From NCBI GenBank assembly GCA_963705375.1, contig OY970071.1, positions 1,110,001-1,142,000 of the forward strand: DNA of 32,000 nt, given 5' to 3'. A program made the position numbers and the translations under genes. Of the stretch, positions 6,637 to 31,657 are shown one piece after another. This stretch comes from Candidatus Saccharimonadota bacterium (GTDB taxonomy: Archaea > Micrarchaeota > Micrarchaeia > Micrarchaeales > Micrarchaeaceae). The first letter of the stretch is position 1, and each line of letters opens with the position of its first letter. Below the pieces are notes generated by a model. The model saw only the letters and a program-made list of their open reading frames with translations, made no database searches and was not told where the DNA came from.

Positions 6637-8193
6637 ATGGATGGCAAGGAAGAGCTTGAGGAGTTCGGCATAGAGACTGCCAAGAACACAAGCATATATG
6701 TCGGTGCTCAGCTTGTGAGCTCGCTAATCTCTTTCGTTGTGCTCATAATCGCAGCACGAGCACTGGGCCCTACAAACTTTGGCGTGTTCATAATCGCGAT
6801 AGCGTTCGAGACTCTGCTAGGTTTTGGAGGCAACCTGAGTTTTGGGTCTGCGCTGAGAAGAATGCTGCCACTTAGCCTTAAGGACAAGAAGCGCGTCAGG
6901 AGCCTGCTCTGCAACGCGTACTTTGTGGGCAGCATGTCAGGCCTGACTATTGCTGTGATAGCGTTCATCTTTAGCGGCACAATTGCAACAGCGGTGTACC
7001 ACAACCCTCAGCTATCTGCTCCTTTGCACATCGCTTCGGTAATGATACTCTTAACTGTGCTATTCAACCTTGGCCTTTCCTCGCTTGTAGGCCTTGGGAA
7101 GGTAAAGGCAGCTGCAACAAGCGATCTCATGTACTCTTCAGCGCAGCTCGTTGCTGTGGCTTTGCTGCTGTATGCCGGTTACGGCATTTCGGGCGCTGTC
7201 GCAGGCATGTTGGTAGGCTTTCTGGTCGGGGTGGCGACAGAGGCGTTCTATCTTAGAAAGGCGATAGGCAGCATATCTTCCAAACTGTCCAAGTCTGTGA
7301 TGAAGCAGATACTGGGTTTTTCTCTGCCTGTATTTGCGTCTGATATCTCGACCATGGGCCTGACGAACTTTGCCGTGCTGCTTCTTGGCGTTTATGTTGC
7401 CACAAGCATAGTGGGCAACTACGGCGCAGCATTCAAGCTTGGCGCGGCGTTTCAGGTAGTGACGGATTCCACTGCTTTCATACTATTGTCCGCTTTTTCA
7501 GTTGCACTGGGCAAGTCCAAGCTGTCAGCACACATGAAAGGCATATTTGCAAACAGCGTGTACTATGCATTCCTGTTCGTGCTGCCGATGCTCGCGTACC
7601 TTGTCGCAAGCGCAAAGCCATTCACATACCTGTTCTTCTCAAACAAGTACTCTCTGGCCCCGCAGTACTTTGTTGTCATAGCGATCGGCATTACGATAGA
7701 TGCCCTGGAAGCGTACGCCGGCAACCTGATGCTGGCATACGGCCGTACTGGCGTGTATGTGCGCTATCAGCTTGCAGCTATAGCGATAAGCCTTGCCATA
7801 ATGCTTGCACTCACTCCTTATTTCGGCGTTATAGGTGTTCTCATTCCGCTTTTCGTGATATCTCCAGTGCTTCTAGGTGTGATGTACTGCCTTTCACTGA
7901 AGAGGAACTTCAAAATGACCCTGCACTACAAAAAGCTTGCAGCAATAGCGTGCTCCGCTTTTCTGACTACGCTGTTTGCCGTGCTGCTTCCAAGTGTTCT
8001 GCATTATAGTGGGAGCATGGCGCTGATCGTAAACTTCCTGATAGTAGTTCTTGTATATCCGCCACTTTCATCGCTTTTCAGGGGAATAACCGAAGACAAC
8101 ATAATCTTTTTGAGAAAGTTCTCATCAAGGCTAGGCCTCGCATCAAAGCTGATGGGAATGCTGCTTGCATATGCTGCACTGTTTGTCAGGTAA
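6637..8193 (+). CDS. Polysaccharide/oligosaccharide flippase (Wzx/MOP superfamily)
   Basis: 518 aa, about 12-14 predicted TM helices along the whole length. The N-terminal pattern (NTSIYVGAQLVSSLISFVVLIIAARALGPTNFGVF) is typical of polysaccharide biosynthesis (PST-family) transporters. Confidence 0.75.
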   Translation: MDGKEELEEFGIETAKNTSIYVGAQLVSSLISFVVLIIAARALGPTNFGVFIIAIAFETLLGFGGNLSFGSALRRMLPLSLKDKKRVRSLLCNAYFVGSMSGLTIAVIAFIFSGTIATAVYHNPQLSAPLHIASVMILLTVLFNLGLSSLVGLGKVKAAATSDLMYSSAQLVAVALLLYAGYGISGAVAGMLVGFLVGVATEAFYLRKAIGSISSKLSKSVMKQILGFSLPVFASDISTMGLTNFAVLLLGVYVATSIVGNYGAAFKLGAAFQVVTDSTAFILLSAFSVALGKSKLSAHMKGIFANSVYYAFLFVLPMLAYLVASAKPFTYLFFSNKYSLAPQYFVVIAIGITIDALEAYAGNLMLAYGRTGVYVRYQLAAIAISLAIMLALTPYFGVIGVLIPLFVISPVLLGVMYCLSLKRNFKMTLHYKKLAAIACSAFLTTLFAVLLPSVLHYSGSMALIVNFLIVVLVYPPLSSLFRGITEDNIIFLRKFSSRLGLASKLMGMLLAYAALFVR

Positions 8194-8411
8194 ACGCGCA
8201 ATATACGTGCTTCTGATGCTTATGCTTTCTGCAAGGCCTCTTGAAGTTCATGCGATAAAAACGTTTATGCCCTCTTTTCAGAAAGCATAAATATCGCTCG
8301 CGCGCAAATCACGTGCGTGATATGCTACATACAAAGCAAATACCTGGCCATCTTATGCACGTGACTAACTGATACGTAACACATATATATGGTAAAATCA
8401 CAAGTTGCCCC

Positions 8412-14592: not shown

Positions 14593-15384
14593 TTAAATAA
14601 GTTTCTCTAACTTTATCAGCAGGTCATTTTTCACTTCCTCCCAGTTTTTGGGACGCAGGGCCAACGGTATGAATGGATTTGTTAGGTTGCGCAGCTTCTT
14701 GGGATCGCTCTTCCTAAGCGTAAGAAGTGCTTTTTGTATAAATTCTGATGCGCTTTCATTTTTGCCTTCTGATTTGAGCATTTGTGCAATTGCATTTTTA
14801 AGTACGGCAAGGTCACAGAGCGGCAGGGCCGCATGGCAGTCATACAGGTCTTTTCCTTCGCTGCGTGTTGCAAGTGCATTAAGTTTTCGTGCAGTAAGGT
14901 CTTCAAGCGAATAGACTATCAGACCGCTTACTGACGCGTGGGCAAATTCGGAAACCGCAGTCTTGTTAGCAATCGGCAAGGCAGTCATGAGCCTCTTCGG
15001 TGATATGTCGATCCTAACGTGATCCCCGCCAAGAGGGCTTTCGTATTCGCAGTAAAATTGAATGGTGTCGCGCACCTTCCGAAACTCTGCCACTTCATAG
15101 CCTTTCATACTTGCGGCAAGTTCTTTGCAGAAGCCCAGAAGCTCATGTTCGGCATCTTTTGTTACAAGGTCGAAGTCTGCATCTTCTGAGAATCTCTGCA
15201 TTTTTTCCAGATATATTTTATTGAGTGCCGTACCTCCCTTGAATACCAACGAATCTGGCATATGGGAAACAAATTCAGCAATCATGCCTACTGCATTCAT
15301 CAGGTGGAACTCCTTCACGACGAACTGGAGCGGCAGCCCGTAGCGTACTGCTATAGTTCTGCATACTTCAATGTCAAGTTCCAT
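14593..15384 (-). CDS. abiEii: AbiEii/AbiGii-family nucleotidyltransferase toxin (type IV TA / abortive infection)
   Basis: Family-typical FKGGTALNKIYL...RFSEDADFD motif (DUF1814-like). Immediately downstream of an AbiEi-like gene (6-nt gap). Confidence 0.85.
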   Translation of the reverse strand: MELDIEVCRTIAVRYGLPLQFVVKEFHLMNAVGMIAEFVSHMPDSLVFKGGTALNKIYLEKMQRFSEDADFDLVTKDAEHELLGFCKELAASMKGYEVAEFRKVRDTIQFYCEYESPLGGDHVRIDISPKRLMTALPIANKTAVSEFAHASVSGLIVYSLEDLTARKLNALATRSEGKDLYDCHAALPLCDLAVLKNAIAQMLKSEGKNESASEFIQKALLTLRKSDPKKLRNLTNPFIPLALRPKNWEEVKNDLLIKLEKLI

Positions 15385-15390
15385 TATCCA

Positions 15391-15993
15391 TCAACCCTTG
15401 GTTATTCTCTTCCTTATCTCATTGAACCTGTATCTCCGTCCTGTATTAACAAAGCGGGTCACGTATGAATCAAATTCCTTCCATTCTTTGGTGCTTAAGG
15501 GATTTGCATGATATGCATCAATTATCTTTTCTTTTTCAATCGAGTATTTTTCAAGGTATGTGCAATCGAAGAGCGTCTTGGCCTTTGTAGAAACAACCAG
15601 ATCCCCGATGCTTTCGAACCCCACAGCCTTTTCCTTAAGCGCCACGGCCCTGAACTCATATACCCCGAAAGTCTTTGATGCAGATTTGTTAGTTGTTACA
15701 ACAGTAATGGTGAATGGCAATTCGGCAACCAGCTTATGGATGTATAGTGCGGAAGAGAACCCCAGATACCCGCTGAATGTCGCCTGGGCTGCCGAAAACG
15801 CATCCTTGAGCGGATTTGTTGTGTAGACTCCCCGTTTAAGGCGCAGAATCTTTTCTGCCTTGCTCAACCTGCTCAGCGTGGTTTTCAGGGTGAAGGCATC
15901 GCATAGCTGTAGGCCCTCAAGCACATCAAGTGTGGAAATGCCCCCATCGGAGTCTCTGATTGCTGCAAGAACAGTTCTGCTAAGGCTCTCCAT
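15391..15993 (-). CDS. abiEi: AbiEi-family antitoxin / transcriptional regulator
   Basis: N-terminal wHTH ending in the LRLKRGVYTTNP motif typical of AbiEi, followed by a C-terminal domain. Paired with abiEii. Confidence 0.8.
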   Translation of the reverse strand: MESLSRTVLAAIRDSDGGISTLDVLEGLQLCDAFTLKTTLSRLSKAEKILRLKRGVYTTNPLKDAFSAAQATFSGYLGFSSALYIHKLVAELPFTITVVTTNKSASKTFGVYEFRAVALKEKAVGFESIGDLVVSTKAKTLFDCTYLEKYSIEKEKIIDAYHANPLSTKEWKEFDSYVTRFVNTGRRYRFNEIRKRITKG

Positions 15994-18325: not shown

Positions 18326-18915
18326 GGGCCTGTGAAATCCCTTGCGTTTACGCATGAGGATGAAACAGGCACAGAATATTATCCCTATTTCTCGATTTGT
18401 CTCCAACGCGGCCGTTAGGCCGCGGAGACCTGAGAACATGGATAGTGTAAACTATGAAAATAAGAACCTTGTGCACAACGCGCACTCCGTGGGTGCGAAC
18501 GAATATCATCTGCAATGGGTAACAAAATACAGATATGCGACCCTTGAAAAAGAGTCGCACTGGAAGGATTGCGATGCGGCAATCCGTTCTGCGGCAGAAA
18601 AATATAAAATCAAAATCGTAGAATTGGGCGTAATGGAAGACCATGTTCACGTAGTTGCGGAAATTCCTCCCGAGATGTCTGTTTCTCGTGCGATAGGACT
18701 TCTGAAAGGTTCAAGTTCCTATGAACTCTTCAGAAAACACCCGAATTTTAGGAAGACATATTGGAACGGCCATTTCTGGGGCAGGGGTTATTTTTACAGA
18801 ACAGTAAGTGAGGTGACCGAAGAAACCATCAGAAATTACGTGCGCAGAGACAACAATATGCGTCAGAAGCGACTATGTGCTTGAAGTAAATCCCACACCT
18901 TTAGGTGTGGGTAGT
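18326..18915 (+). mobile_element. IS200/IS605-family element, TnpA only (no tnpB); ends approximate
   Basis: The element carries a Y1 HUH transposase gene. An imperfect hairpin at 18328-18370 lies just 3' of a TTAC at 18322-18325. A perfect hairpin CGCGGCC-gtta-GGCCGCG lies at 18407-18424. The right-end hairpin CCCACACC-ttt-AGGTGTGGG lies at 18892-18911. No inverted terminal repeats, as expected for this family. Confidence 0.8.
18438..18884 (+). CDS. tnpA: IS200/IS605-family Y1 (HUH) transposase TnpA
   Basis: HLQWVTKYRY, the HUH motif in EDHVHVVAEIPP, LLKGSSSYELF and GHFWGRGYFYRTV. Start set to the ATG at 18438; the track start at 18342 is TTG and would read through the left-end hairpins. 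Confidence 0.9.
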   Translation: MDSVNYENKNLVHNAHSVGANEYHLQWVTKYRYATLEKESHWKDCDAAIRSAAEKYKIKIVELGVMEDHVHVVAEIPPEMSVSRAIGLLKGSSSYELFRKHPNFRKTYWNGHFWGRGYFYRTVSEVTEETIRNYVRRDNNMRQKRLCA

Positions 18916-20530: not shown

Positions 20531-21640
20531 CTATTTAACTACCGTATCCATTCCTAGAAATCTTCCATATCTTTCTACCTCTTCCTTAACTCTTTCCAAG
20601 TTCTCCTTGCTTAATTTTACATATTGTTTTAGTGTAACCACAACTTTCTCTTTTTCAAACTTCCTGCTCCATGCTCCGACTACCTCTCCGTCAACAACTA
20701 TGACAGGAACGAATATTCCATTGCTGTGGATTATCGAGACCTTTCCCGCATTCAGCATTCCATTCAATGCTTTTTGCATTTGGGTGTTTCCGAACGCAGT
20801 GCTCCTGTCAGCATACGCCACAAGATATTCATCAAAAGCAGGTAAAAGATGAACAGAATACAGGTTATCGCGCGATCTTGGAATACTCTTCGGCATGTAG
20901 TAGGTATTGCCGTCGATCTCTTCTTCCACAAGCTTTGACTTTGCTCTTGCTATGCCAGTCCGTGCATCACTGACCTTCAACCCTGACCACCATACATAAT
21001 CCTTGATTGTAGCAGGTCCGTGGCTAGAAAAGTACCTATATGCAAGTTCGGCATTCGCCTGCTCATCTGAAAGCTCCCTTCTCTTTGTTATATGTTCATC
21101 AAGCAGCACGAACGTCTGCTCCTTTCCGGCATATGGCCCAAAGCATATGAGCCCATCCCATGCGGCTCTATAAAGCACATGATATCCCAAATTGTTGTTT
21201 GACGGAACTCTCCCTCTTTCGAGTACTTTGTACATCTCTTTTCTAGTTAGTTGTTTTCCTCCTTTTAGCGCATCATAGAACAGGGCCTTTGTTTTTTCCA
21301 CAACCTTGTCACTTAGTCCTAGATGTCTGTCTCTTGTTATTGCCGTATTCAGAAGACGCGGAGCAAAGAGCCTTAGCATCCAATGTATGTCTGAGGACAC
21401 TGCAAAATGCAGGGTGCCTCTCATAAGCCATGTTCTTGCAATCTCCCTTCTCGCGATTGCGTTCTCAACGTCTTTTACCGTGGTGCCTTCTCTGCATCTT
21501 AATCCTATTGCCCACAATGCTGCCTGATAGTCTTGGGCTTGGATGGCACACATCGAACTTAATACTTCTTCAGGGCTGCTCACTGTGTTGTTGATGTGCT
21601 GGGTTGAAAGACGAAAGTTGGCAATATCTGAAGTATCCAT
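20531..21640 (-). CDS. AlkZ/YcaQ-like winged-helix DNA glycosylase family protein (HTH_42)
   Basis: N-terminal pattern FRLSTQHI...MCAIQAQDYQAALWAIGLR...RTWLMRGTLHF is typical of this family. It includes a Q-x-Q motif (QAQ) at the position of the AlkZ catalytic motif. Confidence 0.72.
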   Translation of the reverse strand: MDTSDIANFRLSTQHINNTVSSPEEVLSSMCAIQAQDYQAALWAIGLRCREGTTVKDVENAIARREIARTWLMRGTLHFAVSSDIHWMLRLFAPRLLNTAITRDRHLGLSDKVVEKTKALFYDALKGGKQLTRKEMYKVLERGRVPSNNNLGYHVLYRAAWDGLICFGPYAGKEQTFVLLDEHITKRRELSDEQANAELAYRYFSSHGPATIKDYVWWSGLKVSDARTGIARAKSKLVEEEIDGNTYYMPKSIPRSRDNLYSVHLLPAFDEYLVAYADRSTAFGNTQMQKALNGMLNAGKVSIIHSNGIFVPVIVVDGEVVGAWSRKFEKEKVVVTLKQYVKLSKENLERVKEEVERYGRFLGMDTVVK

Positions 21641-27249: not shown

Positions 27250-27258
27250 GGAAAAAAC
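27250..27258. repeat. Left copy of the 9-bp target-site duplication (GGAAAAAAC)
   Basis: Identical 9-mer at 28546-28554, each abutting an IS inverted repeat. Confidence 0.75.
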
Positions 27259-27274
27259 GGCTTTGGGACAAAAG

Positions 27275-28270
27275 TCAACCACAACCCATTCTGAAAAGGT
27301 TGTGTAATAACGCAATGCAACTTATCGCGGTGTCAACCCTCTCGTCCAGTTTCTGCCATATTTTCCAACCCACCATTCTTTTGTCTGTGGAGAAACCGCT
27401 TTCTGATTTCTCCCTTCTATAGTATTCAATCAGATGATGGATGGGATCGTTCATCAATCCTCGAAATATGTTTCTCCATCTCGAAGTGCCGTTTATTCGT
27501 GTGTTGCTCTTTGGAAGTATATATAAGATTGTTTTGTCGTCGAAATACTTCAAAGTGGATTGATAACTGTAATACCGGTCTAATCTTGTGCTATTAACCA
27601 TTATCCCTGTGGTCTTCTCTACTTTCCGTAACATCTTGATTGCATTCTCGAACGCTTCTTTTTCAGACCGCACGCCTGAACCGTAACAGACGTATAATCC
27701 CGTCTTAAGATCCATGAGATCAAATGAATACACAAATTTCCTGTATCCTTCTTTATCGACTTCAGTTCGGTAGTGTTTCGTCACCGTGAGCGTGTAGCCT
27801 GTAGCGTCACCTGTCGTGTCAACTCTCTTGTCGCATTTTCGTTTTACGGTCAGAATAAACATGTTGTGAAGAGTCATCCGTACAAGTTCATCCGAATACA
27901 ATCTTTCAATCGTCTTGTAACTGATGTCAATACCACAAAACGCTCCGAAAAGTGACATCAGTCCGGCCATAGGTCGGTTGTTCTTCGAAAATATGGACTT
28001 GAGAAGCAGGGCAACGACCTTCTGTTGTAGAGACATCTTCACAGGCCTTCCAAAATTTGAGGTTTTGATATCGATAAGGTCCGTCGCGGATTTTGCAAGA
28101 CTACGCAACTCTCTTGCGACATATCTTATTCTGCCGGCATATTCTCTTTCGTATTCTTTCCAATCAACAGATGTTTTTGTCGATAGTTCACCATAGATTT
28201 CTGTCAGCGTCCTGAACTCTTTGAAAAACCTTCTGAACTGTCTGTTCGTTAGTCTTTTGTTCCTTTCCAT
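27275..28270 (-). CDS. DDE transposase with IS4/IS5-type Y(2)R(3)E(6)K signature
   Basis: Candidate catalytic residues lie in DTTGDATGY, TRLDRYYS and YYRREKSESGFSTDK; the last is an exact Y-x2-R-x3-E-x6-K spacing. The stop lies inside the left IR. From memory it resembles archaeal ISA1214-type elements; this is unverified. Confidence 0.8.
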   Translation of the reverse strand: MERNKRLTNRQFRRFFKEFRTLTEIYGELSTKTSVDWKEYEREYAGRIRYVARELRSLAKSATDLIDIKTSNFGRPVKMSLQQKVVALLLKSIFSKNNRPMAGLMSLFGAFCGIDISYKTIERLYSDELVRMTLHNMFILTVKRKCDKRVDTTGDATGYTLTVTKHYRTEVDKEGYRKFVYSFDLMDLKTGLYVCYGSGVRSEKEAFENAIKMLRKVEKTTGIMVNSTRLDRYYSYQSTLKYFDDKTILYILPKSNTRINGTSRWRNIFRGLMNDPIHHLIEYYRREKSESGFSTDKRMVGWKIWQKLDERVDTAISCIALLHNLFRMGCG

Positions 28271-28334
28271 CGTATTACTATTTAACAGGAATATATTTAT
28301 AGTTATCTATAGATAACTATTATAGAGTGAATAA

Positions 28335-28520
28335 ATGCCTAGAAAAATAGAACTTAAAAAAGGAAACCTTACACTTACAGAAAAGAAAATAGAGGGTTTC
28401 TTAGAACGTGTGGTGACTCCGATAGGCACATCGGCTAAGGCAGACGTACCTAGAAGATACATTGGAAGACGGGTTTATGTTGTAATAACTAAGAACAAAA
28501 GGACTTCCGTGAAAGATTAA
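28335..28520 (+). CDS. Small transposon-encoded protein (DUF2080-like)
   Basis: 61-aa ORF inside the IS, divergent from the transposase. GTSAKADVPRRYIGRRVYVVI resembles the archaeal 'putative transposon-encoded protein' family (recalled, not searched). Confidence 0.55.
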   Translation: MPRKIELKKGNLTLTEKKIEGFLERVVTPIGTSAKADVPRRYIGRRVYVVITKNKRTSVKD

Positions 28521-28545
28521 GATTGCTGACTTTTGTCCCAGAGTC

Positions 28546-28554
28546 GGAAAAAAC
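28546..28554. repeat. Right copy of the 9-bp target-site duplication (GGAAAAAAC)
   Basis: Identical to 27250-27258. It lies 6 nt upstream of the TATAAGTA box (28561-28568) of the next gene. Confidence 0.75.
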
Positions 28555-28599
28555 AAAACGTATAAGTATTAGGTCGGGTTGACGTTTTTCAGTGATATT

Positions 28600-29025
28600 A
28601 TGGATAAGGCAAAGAATGAATCCAATAAAACAAACAGCGGAGATAAGGATGAGATAAAAGAAATATTGCGTAACGCATTGAGAACGTCAGACCTAGATTT
28701 CGGAGACATGGACATGGCAAAGATAGACGAATTGTCTGAAGGCGACGAAGAGGTCAGGCAGATCCTAGAGCGTCTTGTAATGTATTATGGCACTCTCGAC
28801 CCAAGCATACGCCCTGATGATGCAAAGGATTATGGCGTAGAGCTCTTCAACGTTCTTAAGGAAGGACGCGATTCTACAGATGAGTATACGGAAAAAGACC
28901 CGCTAAAACTGATAGAAGAGCGATGGAATCCAGGAGAAAGGAGAGATGCAATACTTGCGCTATACCACGAAAGTGGAGACGACATAGAGAGCACCTATTA
29001 TCTCCTTGCCACAAAACTTCTTTAG
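28600..29025 (+). CDS. Hypothetical acidic protein (141 aa)
   Basis: ATG at 28600, 31 nt after the TATAAGTA box; the track start at 28579 is TTG. Asp/Glu-rich, no motif recognised. Confidence 0.5.
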   Translation: MDKAKNESNKTNSGDKDEIKEILRNALRTSDLDFGDMDMAKIDELSEGDEEVRQILERLVMYYGTLDPSIRPDDAKDYGVELFNVLKEGRDSTDEYTEKDPLKLIEERWNPGERRDAILALYHESGDDIESTYYLLATKLL

Positions 29026-29183: not shown

Positions 29184-29543
29184 TTACTTGGTTTGCCTCT
29201 TTTTGATGTAATCCATCTCGCCCTTTCGTGCTTTTATCTGCGCTTCTTCTAGGTCTATCTTGTAATGCTTAGCAATGCCTATCACGCTGAACATTATGTC
29301 TGCAAGCTCATCTCCTATCCTGTCATTGTCTACCCTGTACTTCGGATCGCCGGATCTCTTGTCGGCGTAATAATCCTCTTTGATCATTATGCACTTTGCC
29401 AGTTCGCCGCACTGCTTCATGAGCTCTATGGTGTAACCTTCCACACCCCATTGCCTTGGGTGCAGCTTGTCATATCCCTCAATCGCTATTTCCGTCAAAT
29501 CTGTGAGCTCTTCAAAAGTGCGCTTTTTGACCATGTCCCTCAT
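29184..29543 (-). CDS. mazG: MazG-type nucleoside triphosphate pyrophosphohydrolase domain protein
   Basis: 119-aa all-helical protein with the paired acidic motifs of small MazG proteins (KQCGELAKCI and IGDELADIMFSVIGIAKHYKIDLEEA). Confidence 0.78.
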   Translation of the reverse strand: MRDMVKKRTFEELTDLTEIAIEGYDKLHPRQWGVEGYTIELMKQCGELAKCIMIKEDYYADKRSGDPKYRVDNDRIGDELADIMFSVIGIAKHYKIDLEEAQIKARKGEMDYIKKRQTK

Positions 29544-29586
29544 TTCGTAATCAATACTTAAATAGCAATGAGGTAGGCAGAACGAG

Positions 29587-30114
29587 TCAACGCCTTATTT
29601 TCTTCTGTTTTTCAAAACTCAGCAATTCTTCAATCTTATCCAGCTTCTTGTCCGTGTATCTTTCGAGCGCGTACATCTGCATTTCTATGGACTTTGCCGT
29701 GTCCACCTGAATGTTGCCCTTGGTGTCATCCGGGCCTGTTGCTGATATTCCGTAGGACTGCACTGATCCGATTTCGGCAAGTTCTGTTCTCACTTTATCA
29801 ATCACCTCCGGAGTTACCTTCTTCGATTTCAGACTCGCCTCTGAAAGCAAAACATACTTTTCCAACAGGTGCATTCTCCTCTCTATTATCTCTATAGCGT
29901 CACTTTGCATCTTGAAAAGACGACTTCCCGAGTAGTCCAGATTCTTTCTTAGTATGAATGCTTGGAATGTGTGCGCCTCCTTGATTCTTGATACTTCCAT
30001 TCGCAATTTCTTAAGCATCTCTGGCGTAATCTTGTGCGTGTCTGCCTGAACCCTTATTATTCTTGTGACTGACACCTGGCTGCCACCCATCCAACCAAGT
30101 ACTACGCCTGCCAT
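29587..30114 (-). CDS. Hypothetical protein with internal two-fold repeat (175 aa)
   Basis: Two similar halves: KITPEMLKKLRMEVSRIKE...DAIEIIERRMHLLEKY and KVTPEVIDKVRTELAEIGS...KSIEMQMYALERY. No known family recognised. Confidence 0.55.
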   Translation of the reverse strand: MAGVVLGWMGGSQVSVTRIIRVQADTHKITPEMLKKLRMEVSRIKEAHTFQAFILRKNLDYSGSRLFKMQSDAIEIIERRMHLLEKYVLLSEASLKSKKVTPEVIDKVRTELAEIGSVQSYGISATGPDDTKGNIQVDTAKSIEMQMYALERYTDKKLDKIEELLSFEKQKKIRR

Positions 30115-30153
30115 GGTACTTATATCTTGCTGTTATTTTTGCGCTCGGGCAGT

Positions 30154-30495
30154 CTATTTGTTCCTTAATAAGTCGAAGCAGATATACTTCATCATCGCAG
30201 CTCTCGAACTCTCTGCCTTTTCTTCTGCTTTTTCTAGCTCCTCCTTGCTAAAATTTACCGCCAACCATGCCTTTTCATTTCTTTGGTATTTTGCCACGGT
30301 CATAGTGTCCTTTGACAGCCACCACTTGTTCTTTCCGTATTTTCTAATTGCCATTAACGCCTCTTCTCTATCTTTATTTGATAAGGCGTCCCACTCTTTC
30401 AATACTCTCTCCTTCTTGTCTTGCGGTAACCTTTTCCATTCCCTATCGCTCATGGCTAACGGATGCCTGGGCTCATTGACTGTTTGCATGGGCAT
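30154..30495 (-). CDS. Hypothetical protein with C-terminal ribbon-helix-helix-like segment (113 aa)
   Basis: The C-terminus LAVNFSKEELEKAEEKAESSRAAMMKYICFDLL fits the strand / helix / S-R-x-x-hydrophobic helix pattern of CopG/RHH domains. The N-terminal 75 aa are unassigned. Confidence 0.5.
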   Translation of the reverse strand: MPMQTVNEPRHPLAMSDREWKRLPQDKKERVLKEWDALSNKDREEALMAIRKYGKNKWWLSKDTMTVAKYQRNEKAWLAVNFSKEELEKAEEKAESSRAAMMKYICFDLLRNK

Positions 30496-30967
30496 AAATC
30501 ACACTACATACTATGTTCCTTTTCAAATACTTATATTTTGCCTAGTTCTGGCTGGCCTACTCTTATTTGCACGAGTTTTGTTGATTAAAGTATGAGAGAT
30601 CACGTATTACAATATCGCAAAATTGTGCAAACATACTGCCACTGGACACAATGCTTAAAAATGAGTGTAAATAGAACCAGTAGTAGTGGTGATATGAGCA
30701 ATATTTTGAAGGCTGCAAACAAGAGTCCTGACGAGATGAAGTGGTGTCTTCGCTCTACTGCTAGCGTGACTGACTTCCCACATGGCCAATTGGAACATAA
30801 TTTTAAACTACTGCGATTGGAAGCTGTACGGAATCTGCCACACATGCGGAATCATGGGCCCGGCAAGGGTTAGCTGTACAAAACTAGTCTCACAAAGGCA
30901 GGTATATATATCTGGAAATATAGACCGTATCTCTGTGACGAATTAACTATTCGTGCCGGTCGATAAG

Positions 30968-31657
30968 ATGTCATCAAAGCAAAACGAAAAAACAGATGGT
31001 GCGCAGCAAAGAGAAATGGCACAGTTAGAGATAACTTCTACGCAAAACGACGTTACCGGATATGCTATGTTTAGCCTTCTGGCCGATGGTGCTAGAGCGG
31101 TTGCCGACAACAATTTCACCGATGCCGAGCTGAATTCCCCCGAATGGCAAGAGCATCAAGACTCTTATCCGAGATGGGTCACACCTATAGTTGTCAATGA
31201 AGCTCCAGGCATTCCGATTGGGGAAACCGTAGAGTATCAAAATGCGACATTCAAGGTGCCTGAACAATTCCGAGGCATGACTGATGTTATCCTGGTGCTG
31301 TCTATAACTTCCGCGACAGAGCTGGATGGTAAGTTAGTCCTTGTTGGGGATGTATCAAAGGTTCTAGACTATCCAAGAGCAAAAGGCTGGTATTCGACAG
31401 ACGAAGACACTGGCATACCTATAGCTATCCCAAAACGATCCGCTGCTGAAGGTGCTCGTTATTTGCTGCGATCTTCTGGCGCATACGTAGGTCCTATTGC
31501 CCGCGACTTTGATATCGTCGGCTACTATGACAAACGATACGTCGACATTAGTGCAAATCTAGACGACGAGTTTAAGGTTGCCTTTGTGGAAGGAGTGCCT
31601 CAGTCGCATGCAGACGAGGATGTGCCTGCTGGATCGCTATTACGGAATAATAAATAA
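30968..31657 (+). CDS. Hypothetical protein (229 aa)
   Basis: ORF trimmed to the ATG at 30968; the track start at 30953 is GTG. No motif recognised. Confidence 0.5.
   Translation: MSSKQNEKTDGAQQREMAQLEITSTQNDVTGYAMFSLLADGARAVADNNFTDAELNSPEWQEHQDSYPRWVTPIVVNEAPGIPIGETVEYQNATFKVPEQFRGMTDVILVLSITSATELDGKLVLVGDVSKVLDYPRAKGWYSTDEDTGIPIAIPKRSAAEGARYLLRSSGAYVGPIARDFDIVGYYDKRYVDISANLDDEFKVAFVEGVPQSHADEDVPAGSLLRNNK

Follow-up and report, generated by a model that had tools for sequence, protein, structure and literature searches.

An orphan gene pair and a MazG-like gene, probably two separate units, within a variable archaeal chromosome region

Do three small neighbouring genes on the minus strand of an archaeal chromosome, the last of which encodes a MazG-like protein, belong to one functional system, or do they represent separate units that happen to be adjacent? 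The window, i.e. the whole stretch of 32,000 nucleotides that was analyzed, contains three minus-strand ORFs of the same direction with 113, 175 and 119 aa, and coordinate arithmetic gives gaps of 39 and 43 nt between them. The ORF coordinates agree with the earlier note, which had described a trio of co-directional reverse-strand genes with this spacing and had proposed a module of an RHH-like protein, an internally duplicated protein and a MazG-type enzyme. A fourth, convergent gene belongs to the same conserved cluster.

30154..30495, minus strand: p113, ORF of 113 aa, basic (pI 9.5), function unassigned; opens the conserved p113-p175 block
29587..30114, minus strand: p175, ORF of 175 aa, basic, internally duplicated; a helical hairpin occurs twice, predicted as a four-helix bundle
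29184..29543, minus strand: MazG-like gene, homologue of the all-alpha NTP pyrophosphohydrolases from the 'KQ' clade, recognized by a family profile (Pfam match below the cut-off)
28579..29025, plus strand: p148, 148 aa, acidic (pI 4.4), convergent with the trio; fourth gene of the conserved cluster

The complete trio was found in one other contig only, L001. In comparison to this single related contig, dN/dS is 0.10 for p113, 0.09 for p175, 0.075 for the MazG-like gene and 0.23 for p148, and the differences within the trio are mostly located at third codon positions. The p113, p175 and MazG-like genes are real, are read in the frames given above and are under purifying selection. Because of the low dN/dS values and the third-position bias, the long antisense ORF 30065..30595 is likely spurious.

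The cluster is embedded in a stretch of almost only orphan genes with a G+C content of 40-45%, slightly below that of the neighbours, and the wider chromosome context is of the housekeeping type (pyruvate kinase, class I aminoacyl-tRNA synthetase, V-ATPase subunit I, AglB/STT3). An AbiEii gene is also present within the window. An IS element follows next to p148:

27251..28554, no strand assigned: IS element (context), with an IS5-like transposase gene (27275-28270, minus) and a DUF2080 gene (28335-28520, plus)

Its 20-nt terminal inverted repeats (27258-27277 and 28527-28546) and the intact target-site duplication, a direct repeat of 7-8 bp with the sequence GAAAAAA(C) at 27251-27258 and 28547-28554, support the earlier view of a freshly inserted adjacent IS. 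The surroundings had also been described as consisting of unknown genes, and the flanking genes are indeed without family assignment. Searches of Rfam in the region 27-32 kb revealed no structured RNA at E<=1. Around the cluster, the search for att-like direct repeats yielded only one 15-nt pair at chance level, and no tRNA gene was found nearby. The proposed function as defence, counter-defence or TA-like system received no backing from the specialized collections: p113, p175, the MazG-like protein and p148 have no match at E<=1 in PADLOC-DB v2, the cluster has no match in the IMG/VR, phage and plasmid collections, and no PHROG match was significant. The neighbouring p234 showed only a 14.7-bit match to Csx19 in PADLOC.

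The RHH assignment had been made for the C-terminal segment of p113:

30160..30270, minus strand: p113 C-terminal segment (aa 76-112), termed RHH-like earlier; predicted strand, helix, helix

The predicted strand-helix-helix order of this segment and the upstream position of p113 in a gene pair resemble RHH proteins of the CopG/Arc/MetJ type. In the single-sequence AF2 model, which is of low confidence (pLDDT 52), E76-81, H84-93 and H98-112 follow each other as beta-alpha-alpha, and this order was the sole hint of the claimed RHH-like C-terminus; Pfam, PDB, Foldseek and hhalign did not provide any link. At E<=1, Pfam gave nothing for the whole p113 or for the C-terminal 39 aa alone, and the PDB profile search with p113 did not return an RHH protein. 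The same was true for Foldseek against the PDB, a result of little weight with such a poor query model. Alignment of p113 with 10 RHH domains by hhalign gave probabilities of 0.5-1% (P=0.05-0.12), whereas in the control 9 of the 10 genuine RHH proteins that had been held out scored better than p113 (P<=0.008); these values are indicative only. Moreover, p113 differs from the CopG/Arc/MetJ proteins by ~75 extra N-terminal residues, and its putative strand would present W, A and N/H to the DNA. The L001 orthologue lacks the G-x-S/T/N turn and carries an insertion of 4 residues in the inter-helix loop, which is not conserved. Searches of p113 against Pfam, NCBIfam, PHROG and PADLOC did not match any family. 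Its sole relative is encoded at L001:280-630 (56% identity, E=4e-44), which makes p113 a family of two. The word-index protein search overlooked this homologue, and its 'self only' outcome undercounts the p113 family.

The two-fold repeat that had been reported for the 175-aa protein is clearly present. Residues 28-87 and 99-153 align with a significant score of 68 compared to 25.7 +/- 5.0 for shuffled sequences, and 0 of 1000 shuffles equalled it.

29854..30033, minus strand: p175 repeat unit 1 (aa 28-87), from self-alignment
29656..29820, minus strand: p175 repeat unit 2 (aa 99-153), from self-alignment with unit 1

The AF2 model of p175 (pLDDT 64) contains four long helices (H31-57, H65-96, H102-117, H134-166), and with its duplicated helical hairpin the protein is predicted to fold as a four-helix bundle. 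For p175, both the initial ~13-26 residues and the start codon in use are uncertain. Comparisons with Pfam, NCBIfam, PHROG and PADLOC gave nothing significant, and Foldseek searches of PDB and BFVD returned no match at E<0.01, with generic four-helix bundles at E>=0.013. A divergent, duplicated MazG/dUTPase-like bundle was considered and rejected at a profile-profile probability of 0.3% against the MazG-like clade. An identity as HEPN toxin was likewise rejected, with the sole R-x4-H motif (R43...H48) not conserved and K present in both homologues.

Among ~15 billion proteins, the p175 family comprises three members, those of the window, of L001 and of a distant contig, L020. The searches covered a word index over 5.8 billion proteins and an exhaustive HMMER run over 1.84 billion representatives, and were extended to GTDB genomes, JGI metagenome contigs, IMG/VR, phages and plasmids; across all these sets, only L001 and L020 were found to contain relatives. 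The homologue in L020, the sole distant member, shows 43% identity and is situated 64 nt upstream of a gene for a YfbR-like HD 5'-deoxynucleotidase (PF12917, E=2.5e-22). This copy has no canonical start codon for the N-terminal homologous part and an aberrant C-terminal tail, and may be decaying or affected by assembly errors. The window and L020 have no gene in common besides p175, and the L020 gene upstream of p175 is unrelated to p113; since no other genes are shared, the two contexts are independent. The L020 homologue is located ~1 kb downstream of a tRNA-Arg gene, where a duplicated tRNA-3'-end-like repeat is present.

The third protein had been called a MazG-type enzyme, and at the level of the superfamily this claim holds. 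As a single sequence it stays below the threshold of the Pfam model PF03819 (19 bits at a cut-off of 22, E=1.7e-3). The profile of 8 MazG-like members, searched against the PDB, matched the nucleotide pyrophosphohydrolase 5ie9 (E=1.3e-6), YpjD 2gta (6e-4) and 1vmg (2e-3), and weak matches to the MazG, MazG-like and PRA-PH models were obtained for 4 to 6 of the 8 members. Judged by these family-profile matches to 5ie9 and 2gta, the protein is a member of the all-alpha NTP-pyrophosphohydrolases of the MazG/YpjD superfamily. Small enzymes of the MazG/YpjD type are related to DCTPP1/RS21-C6 and dimeric dUTPases. Translation probably starts at the second ATG at position 29534, which agrees with the start of the L001 orthologue and corresponds to 116 rather than 119 aa.

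With 5ie9, YpjD 2gta and the MazG protein of S. solfataricus (1vmg), the clade shares the size of ~100-120 aa and the profile similarity over two core helices. The Mg ligands of 1vmg are Glu35, Glu38, Glu54 and Asp57, arranged as E-x-x-E ... E-x-x-D (PMC2954211). These positions map to Q44, E47, E79 and D82 of the window protein, so that the set of four carboxylates is incomplete, with three ligands retained. The conserved G-E-L and D-E-L-A-D motifs of the clade correspond to the ligands Glu38, Glu54 and Asp57. However, the first ligand Glu and the Glu preceding it, the canonical EE, are replaced by Lys-Gln (K43-Q44 in the window), which is invariant across ~40 clade members; the E47 position is mostly E or D, and Q in one lineage. 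The KQ clade further differs from MazG/YpjD proteins by additional invariant residues (W32, E35, E40, E56-x-Y-Y, R106 and E109) and by falling below the gathering thresholds of the Pfam MazG, MazG-like and PRA-PH models. Its ~40 loci are scattered over Aenigmatarchaeota, Nanoarchaeota, Methanosarcinales, Chloroflexota, Actinomycetota, CPR and Bacillota. The earlier note had itself named a ubiquitous housekeeping MazG homologue with variable neighbours as an observation against a common module, and variable neighbours are what the clade displays: p113, p175 and p148 are absent from the vicinity of the ~40 clade genes, and no neighbour family is common to independent loci. Examples include aldehyde dehydrogenase and AP endonuclease, Nudix and metallophosphatase, methyltransferase and PhyH, or pilus ATPase and membrane genes. 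The closest non-orthologous gene (L002, 52% identity) sits among small genes that are closely packed and run in the same direction.

In the comparison with L001, the p113-p175 block including its intergenic region is covered by one alignment (L001 237-1189 to window 30533-29620, 70.6% identity). The MazG-like cassette aligns apart from it (L001 1848-2226 to window 29564-29185), and this second alignment begins exactly at a TATA-like box:

29557..29564, minus strand: TATA-like box TATTTAAG, with its centre ~26 nt before the ATG at 29534

The same octamer is found in L001 at 1848-1855, 21 nt upstream of the ATG of the MazG-like orthologue. By analogy with the usual layout of archaeal promoters, the box is probably the own promoter of the MazG-like gene, which would give rise to a leaderless mRNA. 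In L001, the p175 and MazG-like homologues are separated by 630 nt, and the homologue of p148 (L001:1268-1735, 39% identity, E=6e-33) lies between them on the opposite strand. The flank on the MazG side also differs: L001 has a His_Phos_1 gene there, the window p148, the IS and AglB. The synteny of the three genes is preserved insofar as all of them recur in L001, but the opposite-strand gene splits p175 from the MazG-like gene. The RHH-regulated three-gene module suggested earlier, or an obligate three-gene operon, is not supported: the MazG-like cassette is separable in L001, and its homology starts at a TATA-like box. On the other hand, the four cluster genes are found within 2 kb of each other in both genomes although dS is above 1 (saturated), and given this proximity and the differing flanks, the cluster could be held together by selection.

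The explanation that we favour, with some reservation, is that the locus contains two separate units in a lineage-restricted cluster within a variable stretch of the archaeal chromosome and not one three-gene system. The first unit would be the p113-p175 orphan pair, two basic and soluble proteins encoded in a collinear DNA block. Both genes are probably co-transcribed, and our best guess is that they act as a small nucleic-acid- or protein-binding pair. The second unit would be the MazG-like gene, standing alone with its own TATA box and belonging to a patchily distributed clade. Its metal site would be altered by Gln in place of the first Glu of ExxE, and proteins of the KQ clade are most likely homodimers that hydrolyse (d)NTPs in a 'house-cleaning' role. 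The adjacency of the two units would then be local and rearrangeable; a rearrangement between the window and L001 is directly visible in the alignments. Speaking against two units, the four genes have stayed within 2 kb in two dS-saturated genomes, the p175 homologue of L020 is again located directly before a nucleotide phosphohydrolase gene, for which chance is not an easy explanation, and the promoter has been deduced from sequence alone.

In an unlikely alternative, p175 would serve small nucleotide phosphohydrolases as their dedicated partner, be it as regulator, inhibitor or specificity adaptor. The combinations with MazG-like and HD enzymes would be versions of one two-component nucleotide-pool module in defence, counter-defence or stress control, to which p113 would contribute as lineage-specific accessory or regulator. 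Each of the three p175-family genes is followed within 1 kb by a same-strand gene for a nucleotide hydrolase, with gaps of 43 nt in the window, 630 nt with one gene between in L001 and 64 nt in L020, and the contexts in the window and L020 are independent. The YfbR-like HD gene of L020 takes the same place directly downstream of p175 as the MazG-like gene of the window, although fold and chemistry of the two enzymes are unrelated and the window contains no HD gene. YfbR-like HD proteins are metal-dependent phosphohydrolases acting on dNMPs, whereas the MazG type represents all-alpha pyrophosphohydrolases acting on NTPs. However, the pattern consists of only two independent observations and was noticed post hoc, ~40 MazG-like loci of the clade are without a p175-like neighbour, and the MazG-like gene has its promoter-like element and is parted from p175 in L001. 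The missing canonical N-terminal start and the odd C-terminal tail of the L020 copy, as well as the empty PADLOC result, also weigh against a partnership. In favour of the partnership, a participation of MazG domains in defence systems has been predicted, though not validated (PMC13092281). Quite unlikely is the stronger version, in which p175 would be a new, very rare partner family that is interchangeably coupled to a KQ MazG-like or a YfbR-like HD enzyme and forms an undescribed archaeal two-component nucleotide-pool module for stress, defence or counter-defence, with p113 as local regulator.

That the cluster (perhaps p234, then p113, p175, the MazG-like gene and p148) is left over from an archaeal virus or plasmid that had integrated, and whose nucleotide metabolism was once served by the MazG-like protein, is likewise rather improbable. 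Such an origin would be consistent with the almost exclusive presence of orphan genes at slightly lowered G+C, with the unlike flanks in the window and L001, with the tRNA-Arg gene and its duplicated repeat near the L020 homologue, and with the virus- or plasmid-like gene array around the L002 homologue. Nevertheless, genes for integrase, capsid and replication are absent, the window shows neither attachment-site repeats nor a tRNA gene nearby, and the searches of viral, phage, plasmid and PHROG collections mentioned above remained without significant match.

In E. coli mazEFG, MazG is encoded downstream of a type II TA pair and hydrolyses (p)ppGpp/NTPs, which restrains the action of MazF. The window resembles this arrangement in having a MazG-superfamily gene downstream of two small co-directional genes. 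However, the upstream genes show no similarity to MazE (AbrB/SpoVT) or MazF (PemK), the E. coli MazG is a tandem-domain protein of 263 aa compared to the single domain of 116-119 aa in the window, and in the window the MazG-like gene apparently has a promoter to itself and, as L001 shows, can be parted from the pair. As a rule, TA families are mobile and have a wide distribution. A type II TA-like pair of p113 as RHH antitoxin or autoregulator and p175 as helical toxin, with the MazG-like protein as downstream modulator, is very unlikely. p113 and p175 are small neighbouring genes of the same direction, 39 nt apart and within one conserved block, the p113 C-terminus has the predicted strand-helix-helix order and the IS and AbiEii indicate a region tolerating mobile or TA genes, but the RHH signal is absent from all four comparisons, the would-be DNA-facing residues and the variable loop of p113 do not fit, p175 matches no toxin family and is not HEPN, a MazF/PemK domain is missing at the locus, p175 of L020 is not preceded by a p113 homologue, and the pair was seen in 2 genomes but in none of the plasmid, phage or viral-contig collections.

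If the ordinary reading with two separate units is true, the locus adds little, namely one more MazG-superfamily gene and two orphans in a variable archaeal region. The KQ clade and the p175 family provide further leads, which are as yet too weak to name a new system. Swaps of analogous enzymes have sometimes exposed real functional partnerships, and the extremely rare p175 family is found beside a nucleotide hydrolase in both independent contexts. The KQ clade is coherent, spans many phyla and is missed by current Pfam thresholds, and with the change of an Mg-ligand Glu to Gln its substrate or activity may differ from those of known house-cleaning enzymes.

The three minus-strand open reading frames (ORFs) lie exactly at the positions that the earlier note had given them, as confirmed by an ORF check:

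29184..29543, minus strand, MazG-like gene, ORF of 119 aa
29587..30114, minus strand, orphan p175, ORF of 175 aa
30154..30495, minus strand, orphan p113, ORF of 113 aa

The gaps measure 39 nt between p113 and p175 and 43 nt between p175 and the MazG-like gene. The comparison with L001, the only related contig carrying all four genes of the cluster, indicates that p113, p175, the MazG-like gene and p148, the convergent neighbour at 28579..29025 (+), are genuine protein-coding genes in the frames stated, because dN/dS is low (0.10, 0.09, 0.075 and 0.23, respectively) and the differences pile up at third codon positions, with synonymous sites being saturated. A long antisense ORF at 30065..30595 found no support in this coding comparison.

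The MazG-like protein alone scored 19 bits against the Pfam MazG cut-off of 22, and its PDB matches were weak. A family profile built from eight members recovered the small nucleotide pyrophosphohydrolase 5ie9 (E=1.3e-6), Bacillus subtilis YpjD (2gta, 6e-4) and Sulfolobus solfataricus MazG (1vmg, 2e-3), hence membership in the MazG superfamily, already recognized in the earlier note, is sound. Compared with 1vmg, the active site is non-canonical. The metal ligands Glu35, Glu38, Glu54 and Asp57 of 1vmg (PMC2954211) correspond to Q44, E47, E79 and D82 in HMMER alignments, and all of the approximately 40 close homologues possess KQ-x-G[ED] instead of the canonical EE-x-GE, while EE is retained in more distant homologues (<42% identity). 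As far as novelty goes, the protein adds one more member to an established superfamily, within a clade marked by its unusual KQ motif. This KQ clade comprises about 40 sequences from at least seven phyla that fall below the Pfam MazG thresholds, and its distribution is patchy (Aenigmatarchaeota, Nanoarchaeota, one Methanosarcinales MAG, Chloroflexota, Actinomycetota, CPR bacteria, Bacillota). Other invariant residues are W32, E35, E40, E56-x-YY, R106 and E109. The conservation of IGDELAD is partly a selection effect, since the search pattern demanded it. Substrate or mechanism may differ in members of this clade, or they may be non-catalytic.

The relatives of the orphan pair are few. For p113 there is one, in L001 (56% identity), which a word-index search overlooked; p175 has two, in L001 (81%) and in a second locus, L020 (43%), the latter being the sole additional cluster from an exhaustive HMMER search over 1.84 billion representatives. 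The sample on this rare-gene side is thus tiny. In L001 the order differs from that in the window: p113, p175, a p148 homologue on the opposite strand, the MazG-like gene and a His_Phos_1 gene. Co-transcription of p175 with the MazG-like gene is impossible there because of the opposite-strand gene in between, and none of the tests run spoke for the three-gene operon that had been proposed. At the DNA level, p113 and p175 form one unbroken alignment including their spacer (L001 237-1189, window 30533-29620), and the MazG-like gene forms a separate cassette (L001 1848-2226, window 29564-29185). Homology of this cassette starts in both loci exactly at the identical octamer TATTTAAG, 21-22 nt upstream of the common ATG (window 29534, L001 1877). 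Its centre lies about 26 nt ahead of the start codon, the distance expected of the TATA box in an archaeal promoter that yields a leaderless mRNA. We infer that TATTTAAG is the TATA box of the MazG-like gene's own promoter, giving a leaderless mRNA. Taking the separate DNA blocks, the TATA-like octamer and the intervening L001 gene together, the simplest reading is that p113 and p175 make up one unit and the MazG-like gene, expressed independently, a second. The element ATATAAGTA occurs upstream of p113 and also of p175 and is conserved in L001; both copies may be TATA boxes, so that co-transcription of p113 and p175 is itself not certain.

The view from the MazG side likewise argues against a three-gene module. 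Relatives of p113, p175 or p148 were absent from all other clade loci (tblastn, E<=1), and when the ORFs lying up to 2.5 kb from the MazG-like gene in 40 loci were clustered all against all, no neighbour family proved common to independent loci. The neighbours vary widely, e.g. aldehyde dehydrogenase / AP endonuclease, Nudix / metallophosphatase, methyltransferase / PhyH, a 646-aa unknown, a cupin within a dense array of small genes, or pilus ATPase / membrane genes. Such variable neighbours are an outcome that the earlier note itself had named as speaking against its hypothesis. Collectively, the best explanation, which we consider rather probable, is that a lineage-restricted orphan pair p113-p175 adjoins an independently transcribed, non-canonical MazG-like enzyme.

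The internal duplication of p175, also proposed earlier, is real, since residues 28-87 align with 99-153 at a score of 68, which none of 1000 shuffled second halves reached (25.7 +/- 5.0). The predicted structure (AF2, pLDDT 64) contains four long helices as two hairpins, in agreement with the repeat. Foldseek returned generic four-helix bundles only (best E=0.07 in PDB, 0.013 in BFVD). Like p113, the protein is basic (pI 9.5) and soluble, and it did not match defence models. It was rejected as a MazG-like relative, showing no profile similarity to that clade, and as a HEPN protein, the HEPN motif not being conserved. The distant homologue is arranged as follows:

L020 8501-9760, both genes on the same strand, p175 homologue followed by a YfbR-like HD-domain gene

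The latter, a 5'-deoxynucleotidase gene (PF12917, E=2.5e-22), begins 64 nt downstream, and no other genes are common to L020 and the window. Both independent contexts therefore place p175 directly upstream of a small nucleotide phosphohydrolase, with unrelated folds. By our own, not computed estimate, well below 1% of genes encode enzymes of this kind, so pure chance is an unlikely cause. This arrangement is the single point that speaks for a functional link, and a role of p175 as partner of nucleotide hydrolases is an unlikely reading. The caveats weigh heavily: only two independent contexts exist, the pattern was spotted after the fact, and the L020 copy is aberrant, as its homologous N-terminal stretch lacks a canonical start codon and it ends in an odd C-terminal tail of 35 aa. 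Gene decay or errors in the long-read assembly may account for this. L020 also contains a direct repeat of about 35 nt (ttctccgcgggccca...) resembling a tRNA 3' end (7414-7550 and 8362-8395), with one copy immediately following tRNA-Arg(TCG) and the second some 840 bp further downstream. The repeats bracket a 200-aa orphan ORF; a small element may have integrated here, beside the p175 homologue, and left them as an att-like scar.

That the cluster in the window is itself the remnant of an integrated element seems quite improbable. The archaeal chromosomal genes of the window (AglB/STT3, V-ATPase subunit I, pyruvate kinase, class I aminoacyl-tRNA synthetase) are interspersed with an AbiEii gene, an IS200 element and an IS5-like/DUF2080 element, the last being:

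27251-28554, between AglB and the p148 gene, IS element with inverted repeats and target-site duplication

It is intact, with 20-nt terminal inverted repeats, a 7-8 bp duplication, GAAAAAA(C), an IS5-like transposase and a divergent DUF2080 transposase-associated protein. The IS200/Y1-type transposase gene (18342-18884; PF01797, E=1e-35) lies near an AlkZ-like DNA glycosylase gene (20531-21640).

The RHH-like C-terminus ascribed to p113 found agreement only in the strand-helix-helix order of its sequence (E76-81, H84-93, H98-112 in a single-sequence AF2 model with a mean pLDDT of only 52). Neither the whole basic, soluble protein nor its 39-residue C-terminal peptide matched a Pfam family at E<=1, RHH was absent from the PDB profile search results, and Foldseek found nothing with this model, which is too weak to trust. 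With hhalign, in a comparison that is only indicative, p113 reached a probability of 0.5-1% (P=0.05-0.12) against an alignment of ten classical RHH domains, whereas nine of the ten true domains scored P<=0.008 in a leave-one-out control. Moreover, four residues are inserted between the putative helices in the L001 orthologue, which is also missing the turn motif, and the putative-strand residues that would touch DNA are W, A and N/H. An RHH assignment is unproven and somewhat unlikely. A p113/p175 toxin-antitoxin (TA) pair with MazG as modulator is very unlikely; the earlier interpretation holds only in part, in that the MazG assignment and the repeat stood, while RHH, operon and TA/defence were backed by none of the tests run.

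Divergent from p113, across a 457-bp non-coding gap (30496-30952) with no Rfam match, lies p234 (30953-31657), an acidic orphan of 234 aa with no homologue in L001 or L020. Its only matches, the PADLOC Csx19 model (14.7 bits) and a weak PHROG tail-lysozyme, are probably noise. The AbiEii nucleotidyltransferase toxin gene is situated at 14593-15384 (-) (PF08843, E=2.5e-23), and directly upstream, where the AbiEi antitoxin would sit, is a 200-aa ORF (15391-15993, -) without match in a Pfam search; 14 kb away from the trio, the two plausibly form a TA pair of type IV that is genuine.
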